Part shown: positions 30,312 through 35,300 of the stretch, one piece after another
Position numbering within the stretch: the first letter of the stretch is position 1
How the letters are laid out: every line of letters begins with the position of its first letter
NCBI GenBank assembly: GCA_041619515.1
Contig: JBFKDW010000005.1
Span: 2,323-66,322, forward strand
Reading direction: 5' to 3'
Length of the DNA stretch: 64,000 nt
DNA from: Acidimicrobiia bacterium
GTDB lineage: Bacteria; Actinomycetota; Acidimicrobiia; Spongiisociales; SHLN01
Translations under genes and position numbers: made by a program
Notes under the pieces: model-generated
The model's database searches: none
Told to the model about the DNA's origin: nothing
Seen by the model: only the letters and a program-made list of their open reading frames with translations

Positions 30312-30724
30312 CGGTCGATCACCCGCTCGTAGAAGATGCACCCGACGCAGATGCGCGTGGTGGCGGCCAGCAGGGCCAGTGAGAAGACGATCAGCGCCAG
30401 CGTCCAACCGGCAACCGACCATCCAATGGCGAAGAGGGCCGACGCTGCGCTGAGGAACACCACTCCCAGCAGCTGGGCAAACCTCGGCGGTCCGGCTTCC
30501 TCCGTCTCGATCGGACGGCGCCGGCGAGGCCGGACCAGCCGCAGATACGCCTGTGTGAACAGGCCCCAACCGGGCCCGGCGAATCGAGTGAGAGCGAGGA
30601 CGCCGGCGGTGACGGCCACCAGCGGCCACCAGTGGAGCGCGAACGCCACACCCACCGCCGCCGCCACCATTGCCTGGTTGAAGCGGGGCACATTCACGTC
30701 GACCCGGGCGGAGGCGGCCGTCAC
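30308..30724 (-). CDS. DUF4395 membrane protein
   Basis: VDVNVPRFNQ, GPPRFAQLLG, C-terminal ICVGCIFY; GTGA overlap with the metZ stop. Confidence 0.88.
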   Translation of the reverse strand: MTAASARVDVNVPRFNQAMVAAAVGVAFALHWWPLVAVTAGVLALTRFAGPGWGLFTQAYLRLVRPRRRRPIETEEAGPPRFAQLLGVVFLSAASALFAIGWSVAGWTLALIVFSLALLAATTRICVGCIFYERVIDR

Positions 30725-31887
30725 AGTGCCTCCAGTGAGCTCGTGAGGTCCTCCTTGAGGTCGGCGACATCCTCCAGGCCTACCGAGATGCGGATCACAC
30801 CGTCGGTGATCCCCGCCGCCGCCCTGGCATCGGCACCAATACGGCGGTGGGTCGTCGTTGCCGGGTGGGTGATGAGGGTCTTGCTGTCACCGAGGTTGTT
30901 GGAGATGTCGATGATCCGGGTGGCGTTCAGCACCCGAAACGCAGCCTCCTTGCCGCCGTCCACCTCGAAAGTGGCCACCGTCCCACCTCCGGCCATCTGC
31001 TCCTTGGCGAGAGCCGCCTGCGGGTGCGAGGGCAGGCCCGGGTACCACACCCGGCGCACCCCGGGGGTGGCCTCGAGAAAGGCCGCCAGGTCGAGCGCGG
31101 ACGCTGTCTGGTGCCGGACCCGCAGCGCCAGCGTCTCCAGGCTCTTGACCAGCACCCAGGCGTTGAACGGGCTCAGCGACGGGCCGGTATGGCGCATGAA
31201 GGGCTGCAAGCGCTCGGAGATGTACTCGGCGCTCCCGAGGATCGCTCCGCCCATTGTCCGGCCCTGGCCATCTATGTGCTTGGTCGTGGAGTAGACCACA
31301 ACGTCGGCGCCCAATTCGAGGGGCTTCTGGAGGACGGGAGTGGCGAAGACGTTGTCGACCACCACCGTGGCTCCCGCGGCGTGGGCGAGATCGGAGACTG
31401 CCGAGATGTCGACCAGAGCCTGCATGGGGTTGGAGGGCGACTCGAAGAAGACCACCCGGGCCGGCTCGGCCAGCGCCTCCTCCCATTCGTCGAGTGAGGT
31501 ACCGGAGACGAAATCGGTGTGGATCCCCCACCGCGGCAGCAACTGGTCGAGGATGATGTAGCAGGATCCGAACAGATCCCGGGAGGCCACCACCCGGTCG
31601 CCCGACTCCAGCAGAGCAGCCAATGACCAGAAGACCGCCGCCATCCCGGTGGCGGTAGACCAGGCGGCTTCGGCGCCTTCGAGGAGCCGCAACCGCTCTT
31701 CGAACATGGACACGGTGGGGTTGCCGTAGCGGGAGTAGAGATAGTGGTCGACGTCGCCGGCGAAGGATGCTTCGGCTTGCTCGGCCGACTCGTAGACGTA
31801 GCCGGAGGTCAGGAAGAGCGCCTCGGCGGTCTCGTCGAAGCCGGATCGCGTCTGGCCTCCCCGTACCAGGTGGGTGTCCTGCCTCAT
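30721..31887 (-). CDS. metZ: O-succinyl/O-acetylhomoserine sulfhydrylase
   Basis: ETAEALFLTSGYVY, YSRYGNPTV, TGMAA, ESPSNP, DNVF, YSTTKHIDGQGRTMGG, ISNNLGDSKTLITHPATTTH; SD AAAGGAG. Confidence 0.92.
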   Translation of the reverse strand: MRQDTHLVRGGQTRSGFDETAEALFLTSGYVYESAEQAEASFAGDVDHYLYSRYGNPTVSMFEERLRLLEGAEAAWSTATGMAAVFWSLAALLESGDRVVASRDLFGSCYIILDQLLPRWGIHTDFVSGTSLDEWEEALAEPARVVFFESPSNPMQALVDISAVSDLAHAAGATVVVDNVFATPVLQKPLELGADVVVYSTTKHIDGQGRTMGGAILGSAEYISERLQPFMRHTGPSLSPFNAWVLVKSLETLALRVRHQTASALDLAAFLEATPGVRRVWYPGLPSHPQAALAKEQMAGGGTVATFEVDGGKEAAFRVLNATRIIDISNNLGDSKTLITHPATTTHRRIGADARAAAGITDGVIRISVGLEDVADLKEDLTSSLEAL

Positions 31888-31992
31888 GTCGTACTCCTTT
31901 GCTCGGTGGGACGTCACGACCGGATAAACCGGCTGCGTGCGGTGGGGCGACGAACGGGTGGAGGGAGGGCTCTCGGGGTGGTGTTCGTCTGG

Positions 31993-32073
31993 TCAGGAGT
32001 GCGTGGCATAGGCGCTTGCACCCGGGTGGACCACCCGAGAGCGTTCACAGCGACACATATGCCGGCAAGTCAT
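31993..32073 (-). CDS. Putative leaderless Met/Cys-rich leader peptide MTCRHMCRCERSRVVHPGASAYATHS upstream of metZ
   Basis: Manual translation, too short for the ORF track. 2 Met + 3 Cys in the first 9 codons; ATG lies 8 nt after a -10 hexamer. Confidence 0.55.
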   Translation of the reverse strand: MTCRHMCRCERSRVVHPGASAYATHS

Positions 32074-32081
32074 GGCGCGAG

Positions 32082-32110
32082 AAGGTACCCCGTTCTCCCG
32101 GCAATGTCAA
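32082..32110 (-). promoter_or_regulatory. Housekeeping sigma70-type promoter for the metZ leader
   Basis: Minus strand TTGACA (32110-32105), 17-nt spacer, TACCTT (32087-32082). Confidence 0.75.
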
Positions 32111-32164
32111 TGGTCCGTGCCACAGCGCCGGCATTTCGCACTACGATGAGTGGCAGACGAAGCG

Positions 32165-32247
32165 TTTATCACGAGCGGTGGAGGGACAGGCCCTGTGAAA
32201 CCGCGGCAACCGGCCTCGTGGCACGGTGCCAATGCCTGATCGATGAG
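32165..32247 (+). ncRNA. SAM-I (S-box) riboswitch aptamer upstream of metH
   Basis: TTATCACGAGCGGTGGAGGGACAGGCCCTGTGAAACCGCGGCAACC...GGTGCCAAT...GATGAG. P1 TTATC/GATGA, kink-turn P2, GGCAACC/GGTGC P3. P4 appears absent. Confidence 0.92.
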
Positions 32248-32311
32248 CTGCCGGCGAGCGGTTCTCTCCGCTCGAGGCGCTCCGTGAGCGTTTCGAGAAA
32301 GGAGAGATCAT

Positions 32312-32338
32312 ATGACCGGGTGCGATCCGACATCATGA
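32312..32338 (+). CDS. 8-codon uORF (MTGCDPTS) whose stop overlaps the metH start
   Basis: SD AAAGGAG 32298-32304, ATG 32312, TGA 32336-32338 overlapping metH ATG 32335-32337. Confidence 0.45.
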   Translation: MTGCDPTS

Positions 32339-35300
32339 GTACGTACCTCGACGCCGTCACCTCCGGCAAGGTCGTTATCTTCGACGGTGCCACCGGGACA
32401 TCGCTTCAGCAGTTCGGCCTCACGGCCGACGATTTCGGCGGGCCGACCTTCGAGGGATGCAACGAGCTGCTCAGCGTCAACCGGCCCGACGTGGTCGAGG
32501 CTGTGCACCGCTCGTTCTTCGACGTCGGGGTGGACGCCACCGAGACCAACACGTTTGGGGCGTTCTCAGTCCCGCTGGGCGAGTACGGGATCTCTGAGCG
32601 GGCGTACGAGCTGGCGGCCGCCGCCACCGAGATCGCCCGCCGGGTCACCGACGAGTACATCGCCGCCGACGGCCGGTCCCGCTGGGTGGCCGGATCCATA
32701 GGGCCCGGCACCAAGTTCGCGTCCCTCGGCCAGATCCGGTACGCCGACCTGCGCGACGGGTACGAGGTGGAAGCCGCCGGGCTCATCGACGCCGGCGCCG
32801 ACGTCCTGCTCATCGAGACTCAGTTCGATCTGCTGGGGGCCAAGGCCGCCATCAACGGTGCCCGGCGCGCCATGTCTCACTCGGGGCGGGAGGTCCCGCT
32901 CCAGGTTCAAGTCACCATCGAATTGACCGGCCGCATGCTGCCCGGCACCGAGATCGGCGCCGCTCTGACCACCCTCGACGCCATGGGTGTCGACGTGGTC
33001 GGAATCAACTGCGCCACCGGGCCCCAGGAGATGTACGAGCCGCTTCGCTACCTGGCCGCCTATTCACGGCTTCCGGTCGCGGTGGTCCCCAATGCCGGGC
33101 TTCCACAGGTGATCGACGGTGAAATGGCCTACGACCTTCCCGCCGGCGCCCTCGCCGAGCACCTCGAGACGTTCATCAGCGAGTTCGGAGTCCAGGTCGT
33201 CGGCGGATGCTGTGGGACGACGCCCGAGCACCTGCGGGCGGTGGTCGAGCGCTGTCGCAGCCTGACTCCGGCCACCCGCACACCTACTCACATTCCGGGG
33301 GCGGCCTCTACGTACTCGCCCGTCTCCTTCAAGCAGGACACCTCCTTCCTCATCATCGGCGAGCGAACCAATGCGAACGGTTCGCGGGCTTTCCGGGACG
33401 CCCTGCTCGCCGAGGACGTCGACGCCTGCGTGCGAATTGCCGAGGACCAGGTCGCCGAATCCGCCCATCTCCTCGATCTGTGTGTCGACTACGTCGGACG
33501 AGATGGCGTCGCAGACATGAACCTGCTGGGAGGTCGCTTCGCCACCGAGGTCACCGTCCCGGTCGTGCTGGACTCGACCGAGCCCGAGGTGATGCAGGCC
33601 GGCCTCGAGCTGATCGGTGGCCGCAGTGTCCTCAACTCGGCCAACCTCGAGGAGGGTGATGCTCCCGGCTCCCGGTTGGATCGAGTGCTGCGCCTGGCGA
33701 AAGAGCACGGGTCCGCCGTGATCTGCCTGCTCATCGACGAACGCGGCCAGGCTCGCACCCTCGATTGGAAGCTCGAGATCGCCCATCGGATACACGATCT
33801 GGCAGTGGAACGGTACGGTCTCGAGCCCTCCGATCTCATATTCGACCCTCTGACCTTTCCCCTCAGCACCGGAGACGACGACCTGCGCGCCGACGCCATT
33901 GAGACCATCGAGGCAATCAAGCGGATCAAGCAGGAGCTGCCCGGAGTCTCGACCGTGCTGGGGGTATCCAACGTCTCGTTCGGTCTCTCCCCGGTGACCC
34001 GGCGGGTCCTCAATTCGGTGTTTCTGCACGAATGCGTTGAAGCCGGCCTCGACGCGGCCATCATCCATGCCGGCAAGATGTTGCCGCTCAACAAGATCCC
34101 CGACGACCAGCGACAGGTGTGCATGGACCTCATCTACGACCGCCGCCGCTCGGGCTACGACCCACTCGAGGCCCTATTGGCTCTCTTCGCCGACGCGGTC
34201 GAGGAGTCGAGCGTCGTGGAGGATCGCTCAGGGTGGCCGATCGAGCGCCGTCTCAGCGAGCGGATCGTCGACGGCAACCGGGGCGGGATCGAGAACGAGC
34301 TGGACGAGGCGCTGGCGAACGGCCGGGGGCCACTCGAGATCATCAACGACGTCCTCCTGGAAGGCATGCGAACAGTGGGCGAGCTTTTCGCCTCCGGCGA
34401 GATGCAACTGCCTTTCGTGCTGCGGTCGGCCGAGACAATGAAGGCCGCCGTCGCCTATCTCGAGCCCAAGATGGAGAAAGAGGACAGCGCTACCCGCGGA
34501 TCCATCGTGCTCGCCACCGTGCGGGGCGACGTGCACGATATCGGCAAAAACCTCGTCGACATCATCCTGACCAACAACGGGTTCAAGGTGCACAATCTCG
34601 GCATCAAGGTCGAAATCGACGACATGGTCCGCACCTTCCAGGAGGTGGACGCCGATGCCATCGGGATGAGCGGCCTGCTGGTCAAGAGCACGCTCGTCAT
34701 GCGAGACAACCTCGACGAGCTCACCCGGCGCGGCCTCGACCACGTCCCGGTGCTGCTGGGTGGAGCGGCGCTGACCCGCTCGTACGTGGAAGATCAGCTG
34801 CGGGCCAGGTACAACGGGCACGTCTACTACGGGAAGGATGCCTTCGCCGGGCTCGATGCCATGCACTACATCGTCGGCGGCGAAACCGGGCCGGAGCCGG
34901 CCAGGCTCCGCGGACGCACCCTCCCAGCTCACAGCGAGCAGGAAGAGGAGGTCTCTGCGACGGATCTCCCCGCTCGGGCGCCCTCGGTGGCAACCGACAA
35001 TGAGATCTTCGTGCCGCCGTTTCTCGGCAGTCGCATCGTCAAGGGCATCCCGCTCCATGAGGTCGCCGCCTATCTGAACGAGACGGCCCTGTTCCGGAAC
35101 CAGTGGCAATACCGGCCCGAATCCGGGGAGACGGATGCCGATTTCAAAGACCGGCTCCGCCTGCTGCTGCGGGAGCAGATGGCGGTGGCGCGGGCCGCCG
35201 ATCTGCTGGTTCCCGAGCTGGTCTACGGCTACTTCCCGGCCAACGGGGACGGCGACGACCTCGTTATCTGGGAGGACGAGAGCCGCTCATCCGAACGGAT

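Follow-up and report, generated by a model that had tools for sequence, protein, structure and literature searches.

In Mycobacterium tuberculosis, PPE2 lacks a Shine-Dalgarno (SD) sequence and shares an AUGA with uPPE2, an out-of-frame upstream open reading frame (uORF) that lies behind a B12 riboswitch (Kipkorir et al., Nucleic Acids Res 2024, PMC11260477). According to the accessible part of that paper, the expression of PPE2 strictly depends on the translation of uPPE2 and is achieved mainly by termination-reinitiation, with some stop suppression that gives rise to a frameshift fusion. A survey of the same organism, as far as the available portion of the preprint goes, lists 515 NUGA overlaps and finds more than half of the downstream ORFs to be without initiation signals (bioRxiv 10.1101/2022.06.01.494293), and the accessible text of a study on upstream ribosome binding sites (RBSs) in Sinorhizobium meliloti describes uORFs whose effect on the downstream gene comes about through coupling or occlusion of the RBS (PMC13285730). 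In a literature search that had most subscription journals outside its scope, M. tuberculosis ppe2 was the only experimentally studied link between a riboswitch and termination-reinitiation that we found, and no bacterial S-adenosylmethionine (SAM) riboswitch tied to a uORF or to termination-reinitiation was encountered. Here we describe the metH leader of an uncultured marine actinobacterium (Acidimicrobiia), which lies within a stretch of 64,000 nt (the window, to which all coordinates refer). In this leader, the SD next to a SAM riboswitch serves a micro-ORF of eight codons, and we consider it rather probable, from leader comparisons and predicted folds, that this riboswitch-gated micro-ORF is coupled to metH by termination-reinitiation and that SAM hides its SD.

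The SD of the micro-ORF, AAAGGAG, is separated by a 7-nt spacer (32305-32311) from an ATG (32312-32314) that is out of frame with metH. The codons ACC GGG TGC GAT CCG ACA TCA follow, then the TGA at 32336-32338, and the uORF and metH thereby share an ATGA. The peptide MTGCDPTS contains a single Cys, encoded by the TGC at 32321-32323. The strength of each SD was calculated as the energy of its duplex with the 16S tail GAUCACCUCCUUUCU, which was read in three genomes of the same order, the 16S end of the window's own genome being unassembled. The uORF SD reaches -12.7 kcal/mol versus -6.2 kcal/mol for the best site before ATG 32335, and the scan found no further site of -7 kcal/mol or stronger in the 140 nt upstream. 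An initial annotation of this DNA had assigned AAAGGAG to ATG 32312, with an 8-codon MTGCDPTS and an ATGA overlap with metH, and had regarded the metH ATG as lacking an SD of its own. The sequence agrees exactly with the former, and the duplex energies bear out the latter. MetH has Pfam matches to S-methyl_trans, Pterin_bind, B12-binding_2, B12-binding and Met_synt_B12, and the S-methyl_trans match begins at residue 14, counted from ATG 32335.

The comparison with other metH leaders supports a coupled micro-ORF. A search of relatives' genomes gave a metH match in 25 of 41 genomes, among them five of the seven of the same genus. A scan of genome contigs with an aptamer pattern returned at least 119 stretches, of which 80 were examined and 13 had MetH downstream, a scan of metagenome contigs with a hairpin pattern returned 32 stretches, 20 of them riboswitch-linked, and an additional genome scan contributed 11 stretches. 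After removal of identical copies, 51 distinct riboswitch-linked metH leaders from Acidimicrobiia were sorted by fixed rules (individual leaders are given L numbers). An SD-served, out-of-frame uORF that ends on the metH start is present in 34 of the 51, with 32 NTGA overlaps and two TGATG arrangements (L252 and L262) in which the overlap is 1 nt. The remaining leaders have either an SD with a direct in-frame start (15/51) or an unclear layout (2/51). The orthologous metH 5' ends, to which the initial annotation had pointed as a check, have an 8-codon uORF with an ATGA or GTGA overlap in each of the five genomes of the genus that gave a metH match, and an 8-codon uORF with overlapping stop also occurs in L253, L256 and L119. 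The coupled uORFs are 8, 9, 12, 16, 17, 18, 19, 24, 44 or 61 codons long and encode about 12 unrelated classes of peptides. As the overlap is kept across these varied lengths, it must have been maintained through many insertions and deletions, and judged from this comparison the stop/start overlap is not a chance feature. L172 has the only SD-proximal out-of-frame ORF that misses the metH start; it ends 5 nt beyond. In 23 of the 34 coupled leaders, metH has no SD of -7.8 kcal/mol or stronger, and 20 of the 34 have no in-frame NTG in the interval from the uORF start to the metH start. In 12 of the 34, this interval contains an in-frame stop, so that metH cannot begin at the gated SD there. The proposal of the initial annotation that metH is translated by termination-reinitiation from a SAM-gated micro-ORF is thus supported by the same-genus genomes and by the 34 of 51 leaders, reinitiation itself being what we infer from them.

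Some leaders have more elaborate arrangements. In L233, L251 and L265, a uORF of 44-61 codons starts from the gated SD and runs through a second hairpin (GUCUCUCCC...GGGAGAGAC) that is followed by a strong second SD, and the uORF still ends with a GTGA on metH. L243 has two tandem uORFs, the second of which comprises 12 codons. A different situation was seen in metagenome-assembled genomes of soil Acidimicrobiaceae, whose MetH proteins are 63-67% identical (most of L033-L107) and made up the bulk of the relatives returned by a protein-based search. These genes have no riboswitch, and they are preceded by GGTATCCT with a GTG or ATG after approximately 7-10 nt, which resembles a -10 box with a leaderless start.

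The riboswitch lies directly 5' of the uORF SD, with the aptamer ending at 32249 and the SD, which is predicted to be sequestrable, at 32298-32304. It was the sole SAM riboswitch that a covariance-model search detected in the window's genome, and it matches RF00162 on the + strand over model positions 1-108 with 72.3 bits (gathering threshold 44.4, E 4.3e-16). The helices P1-P3 align, and the P4 columns form a 17-position gap in the RF00162 alignment. The aptamer without an aligned P4 and the two conserved hairpins on its 3' side may represent a distinct subtype of the SAM-I clan (CL00012), another family of which also matches here with a lower score. As no intrinsic-terminator-like site was found in 31880-32420, control is most likely exerted at translation, or through Rho.

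How the SD could be gated is indicated by the predicted folds. In the minimum free energy (MFE) fold, UCUCUCC (32263-32269) pairs with GGAGAGA (32301-32307) around the 12-bp stem of hairpin H2. The probability of being unpaired is only 0.01-0.04 in the GGAG core, and the metH AUG is mostly paired as well (0.88/0.19/0.06). Forcing the SD and the AUG open costs 2.1 kcal/mol (-79.8 vs -81.9 kcal/mol), and hairpin H1 forms in this SD-free fold. H1 is also part of the RNAalifold consensus of 12 close relatives, in which the aptamer core (AAUGC and the 5' strand of P1) is the pairing partner of the 3' strand of H2, GAGCGUUUCGAG. The 12-bp H2 stem is found in 17 of 19 MFE folds of leaders that were examined, L004 and L253 being the exceptions, and GAGGCGC...GAGCGUUUCGAG of the two-hairpin region (32255-32297) is almost invariant across 36 aligned leaders. 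Folding thus points to SD sequestration by a switch of three helices. When SAM is bound, the aptamer would keep its core, H2 (32271-32297) would form and thereby break H1, and UCUCUCC would be released for pairing with the SD. In the SAM-free state, the aptamer core would capture the 3' strand of H2, H1 would form, and the SD would be free to load ribosomes on ATG 32312. These ribosomes would translate the eight codons, stop at the TGA 32336-38 and move back by one base to reinitiate at ATG 32335 of metH, over the NUGA overlap, and the output of metH would follow the translation of the micro-ORF, which itself would follow SAM. We infer SAM binding, the direction of the switch and the translation of the uORF from these predictions and from the leader layout.

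Two other interactions were considered and dropped. A pseudoknot of the P3 loop (GCCUCG) with CGAGGC at 32274-79 is at odds with the free variation of the P3 loops alongside an invariant GAGGCGC. A hairpin between the uORF AUG and the metH AUG (32306-32339, UCAUAUG with CAU-AUGA, -7.0 kcal/mol) rests on a self-complementary CAUG and has no counterpart in the folds of the relatives.

Table 1. Features of the metH leader and its surroundings (window coordinates).
Feature	Position	Strand	Basis or remark
Divergent Cys/Met-metabolism enzyme, pyridoxal phosphate (PLP)-dependent	30721..31887	-	PF01053, E 7.5e-129
26-codon Met/Cys-rich ORF MTCRHMCRCERSRVVHPGASAYATHS in the metZ-side leader	31993..32073	-	ORF translation
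SAM riboswitch aptamer (SAM-I clan)	32163..32249	+	RF00162, 72.3 bits; P4 hairpin not aligned
Hairpin H1 (CGAGCGG / CCGCUCG)	32255..32274	+	Loop and 3' side hold the anti-SD UCUCUCC (32263-32269)
Hairpin H2 (CUCGAGGCGCUC-CGU-GAGCGUUUCGAG)	32271..32297	+	Overlap between its 5' strand and the 3' strand of H1
Shine-Dalgarno sequence AAAGGAG	32298..32304	+	Only strong SD of the leader
Micro-ORF (uORF) MTGCDPTS	32312..32338	+	ATG, seven sense codons, TGA
In-frame GTG, rival metH start	32320..32322	+	5 codons upstream of ATG 32335
ATGA stop/start overlap	32335..32338	+	metH ATG 32335-32337; uORF TGA 32336-32338
metH, cobalamin-dependent methionine synthase, 1168 aa	32335..35841	+	Pfam domains

Several observations weigh against a coupled micro-ORF as the route to metH. 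The 51 leaders come from related organisms and were found by patterns derived from the window, and their counts are therefore not independent, which is why no P-values are given. The 15 of 51 leaders with an SD and a direct in-frame start manage without a uORF, and in the close relative L239, which is 81% identical over the aligned MetH N-terminus, the SD-proximal ATG is fused in frame with metH (MHEAQQAKPTYLDAV). The reading frame is the sole difference between this fused layout and the uORF layout. From the direct leaders and L239 it follows that the uORF is dispensable for the control of metH by the riboswitch. In addition, 11 of the 34 coupled leaders carry a further SD before metH, and coupling may be unnecessary there or may work by unmasking. 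Just 2 nt separate GGAG from the uORF ATG in L002, L004, L005 and L253, and the first three have an in-frame TTG or ATG 10 nt after GGAG; in such closely spaced leaders, the in-frame start may compete or may even dominate. The window itself has an in-frame GTG at 32320. As regards the switch, none of the 45 consensus pairs in the RNAalifold analysis of the 12 close relatives shows a compensatory change, these relatives being too alike to decide the matter. Their consensus is the SD-free fold, and the z-score of the leader fold is just -1.79. An RNA run (X19) matches only the conserved aptamer of other organisms and has no depth over 32304-32371, and is uninformative here.

How else could the translation of metH be brought about? 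The simplest alternative would be that a sequencing or assembly indel disguises a normal in-frame start as a uORF, and L239 demonstrates that an in-frame version exists in nature. However, two contig sets from other studies, X5 over 32232-32600 and X6 over 32257-32600, have neither differences nor gaps (all runs compared being contigs and not raw reads), this contig comparison lists no indel from 32267 to 32600, and the same frame relation is found in five genomes of the genus and in many other assemblies. The 1-nt error that would place ATG 32312 in frame with metH, against which the initial annotation had cautioned, is therefore found neither at the contig level nor among the orthologues, and the probability of such an artefact is practically negligible. 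A more serious competitor is the in-frame GTG 32320, which had escaped the initial annotation and from which MetH could start via the same SD at long spacing, with an incidental or competing micro-ORF. No stop lies between this GTG and ATG 32335, and an NTG stands at the same position in L002-L005 and L256 (TTG, TTG, TTG, ATG and TTG; together with the window, 6/9 of the 8-codon class), in L002, L004 and L005 at 10 nt from GGAG versus 2 nt for the uORF ATG. MetH also tolerates N-terminal extensions, as its conserved Tyr is found at residue 4 to 17 in the direct-SD leaders. In the window, however, the GTG begins 15 nt past the end of the GGAG core versus 7 nt for ATG 32312, which favours the uORF. 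Moreover, the NTG is absent in L014, L253, L119, L030, L240 and L247, where the uORF and its overlap are retained, and the in-frame stops rule out a start of this type in 12 of the 34 coupled leaders. The TG of the NTG also forms part of TGC, the Cys codon in the uORF frame, and the NTG may hence be a by-product. Finally, uORF codon 5 is GAT, GAC or GAG and always encodes Asp or Glu, and its varying base is the first codon position in the metH frame, which there yields S/P/L/A/A/D/R. Taken together, a start of MetH at GTG 32320 appears unlikely.

Alternatively, the uORF could be translated while initiation at metH is independent of it, through standby binding, scanning from the SD or an SD-independent start; the uORF would then have no effect or repress mildly, as in M. 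tuberculosis metE. The 15 of 51 leaders without a uORF would fit with this, and as many soil relatives without a riboswitch look leaderless, the clade may use SD-independent starts. Yet a neutral or repressive uORF does not need a stop exactly on the metH start, and this overlap has been kept at no fewer than ten uORF lengths. The base after the start codon is an A in all 34 coupled leaders (32 NTGA and two ATGA with the 1-nt overlap) versus 8 of the 17 uncoupled ones, and pairing is predicted for most of the metH AUG, all of which makes independent initiation improbable. As a further possibility, frameshifting or stop suppression at the overlap would give MetH an N-terminal extension encoded by the uORF. 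In an M. tuberculosis reporter, reinitiation was accompanied by a frameshifted uORF-PPE2 fusion, according to the accessible part of that report (PMC11260477). At the metH overlap, no slippery heptamer was recognised in 32321-32338 (inspected by eye only), and the uORF peptides do not show the conservation expected of a protein extension; such a fusion is very improbable. Coupling by termination-reinitiation at the overlap therefore remains the reading that we prefer.

This reading would be compatible with an additional role of the micro-ORF as a sensor, in that the SAM signal would be joined by a sulfur or cysteine signal, derived from ribosome pausing at Cys codons or from a conserved nascent micro-peptide. 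Mycobacteria have cysteine-responsive polycysteine leader ORFs, in which runs of Cys codons act by attenuation before sulfur-metabolism genes. Cys codons are enriched in the uORF frame of the metH leaders (26/454) versus the other two frames of the same stretches (11/426 and 5/426). At least one Cys is encoded by 20 of 28 uORFs, as compared with 11 and 3 for the other frames, and by 26 of 34 in the final set. Moreover, 18 leaders share the motif [ST]-x-[ED]-P-x-C-[TIR], which in 17 of them lies in the same uORF as the overlap; in L243, it is found in the first of the tandem uORFs, and the overlap is made by the second. The Cys occupies codon 8-10 in 15 of 17 scored motif leaders. The acidic motif codon can be GAA, GAG, GAT or GAC, and L266 retains E-P-x-x-C-T on different nucleotides. 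The Cys codon ends in T in 88% of the rows (17 of the 18 motif leaders, L266 left out), TGT being a rare codon. The conserved uORF stretch GAACCUUCCUGU was examined as a possible downstream anti-SD and rejected: in 17 leaders, its pairing with the SD region had a mean energy of -7.7 kcal/mol versus -8.6 for shuffles and -9.2 for other windows, which argues against a simple RNA explanation, and the motif pairs with differing partners in single MFE folds. The [ED]-P-x-C motif therefore looks like the reflection of a constraint on the peptide or the codons. The leader of the divergent gene, on the metZ side, also carries a Met/Cys-rich ORF.

For the window locus, the situation is less favourable. 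Its peptide lacks the [ED]-P-x-C motif, and MTGCDPTS has one Cys and not the several regulatory codons that would be expected of an attenuator. Among the 34 coupled uORFs, eight have no Cys, including the close relatives L014 and L253 (with CGC instead) as well as L030, L240 and L247. In the genus of the window, MFE folds allow codons 2-4 (ACCGAUUGC) to pair with the invariant GCGAGCGGU, and the U to C change in L253 improves pairing of this type; RNA pairing could account for the retention of the TGC just as well. The relatives are, furthermore, not independent. A sensory role of the micro-ORF is thus unlikely, and the cysteine-related second input that the initial annotation had raised for the window locus is possible but not supported. 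That the motif marks a conserved family of riboswitch-gated micro-peptides, which would report cysteine or sulfur supply via Cys-tRNA-dependent pausing or via the nascent peptide, we regard as unlikely. If it were true, the synthesis of MetH would need low SAM and adequate cysteine, and an RNA sensor and a ribosome sensor would be arranged in series within about 180 nt.

The initial annotation had also summarized that about 450 bp hold a riboswitch, a coupled micro-ORF and a leader peptide on the opposite strand. This description holds, with the divergent PLP enzyme and the Met/Cys-rich 26-codon ORF both being present. The enzyme, which had been called metZ, was assigned here at the family level, to the Cys/Met-metabolism PLP enzymes (PF01053). 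In further genomes, SAM riboswitches of the subtype found here directly precede an SD and a small Met/Cys-rich ORF, e.g. ...PGSFRCMCCRRSRVACPSVRRS. Such leaders are L135, L149, L152, L171, L179 and L180 (30 codons), L137, L145 and L147, L129, L139 and L166, and L156. Their ORFs share a C-x-C...SRV core with the minus-strand ORF 31993-32073 of the window (MTCRHMCRCERSRVVHPG...), which indicates that the Met/Cys-rich leader peptide is riboswitch-gated in other genomes. A second family of small ORFs, with 19-22 codons and the ending ...RRC[RHL]MS(S), follows this riboswitch type in L109, L128, L148 and L167, and the stops of these ORFs do not overlap with any long ORF within the 450 nt examined. 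Among the 31 'direct' targets of the subtype, 19 encode a protein that begins with M-x-x-V-x-G-LRCRECGR (L112, L113, L121, L123, L125, L126, L133, L134, L136, L153, L154, L157, L158, L162, L174, L178, L182, L186 and L187).

The annotation of riboswitches usually assigns the gated SD to the downstream gene, and in two thirds of the examined metH leaders this SD is that of a micro-ORF. Where the gated SD belongs to a micro-ORF, gene callers will misplace the metH start or miss the real control point. The leaders also offer natural variants for the study of reinitiation, including uORF lengths between 8 and 61 codons, a second SD that is present or absent, and in-frame fusions. In comparison with known systems, the polycysteine leaders of mycobacteria are similar in that a small uORF with Cys codons precedes sulfur genes in Actinomycetota, and differ in that the window uORF has a single Cys and is coupled by an overlap. 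Classical translational riboswitches of the SAM-I/S-box type (RF00162) belong to the same aptamer family and share the predicted sequestration by an anti-SD, whereas the SD of the metH leader serves a micro-ORF and not the regulated gene, P4 is not aligned, and two conserved hairpins lie on the 3' side. The uORFs of S. meliloti resemble the metH uORF with respect to coupling, but the accessible text on them states no link to a riboswitch (PMC13285730). With the NUGA overlaps of operons, as described in the available portion of the survey, the metH leader has the 4-nt overlap and the SD-less downstream ORF in common. Those overlaps mostly connect pairs of full-length genes, whereas the upstream partner of metH is a micro-ORF whose only evident role is the delivery of ribosomes under the riboswitch.

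The closest resemblance is that to ppe2, for which the accessible part of the report likewise describes a riboswitch over the SD of an out-of-frame uORF, a main ORF without SD, and an AUGA overlap. The differences are that the riboswitch responds to B12 there and belongs to a SAM family here, that the controlled gene is metH and not ppe2, that the organisms are Acidimicrobiia and not Mycobacterium, and that the uORF has only eight codons, the metH system being known from its sequence. Furthermore, the metH layout is conserved across many genomes (34/51 leaders). The comparison suggests that the logic of ppe2 is implemented here with another ligand, another gene and in another bacterial class, with comparative evidence of a selected layout. 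The design of a riboswitch-gated uORF may thus be no mycobacterial oddity, and the leaders suggest that it is recurrent and has been selected, with a different ligand, in a second class of actinobacteria.

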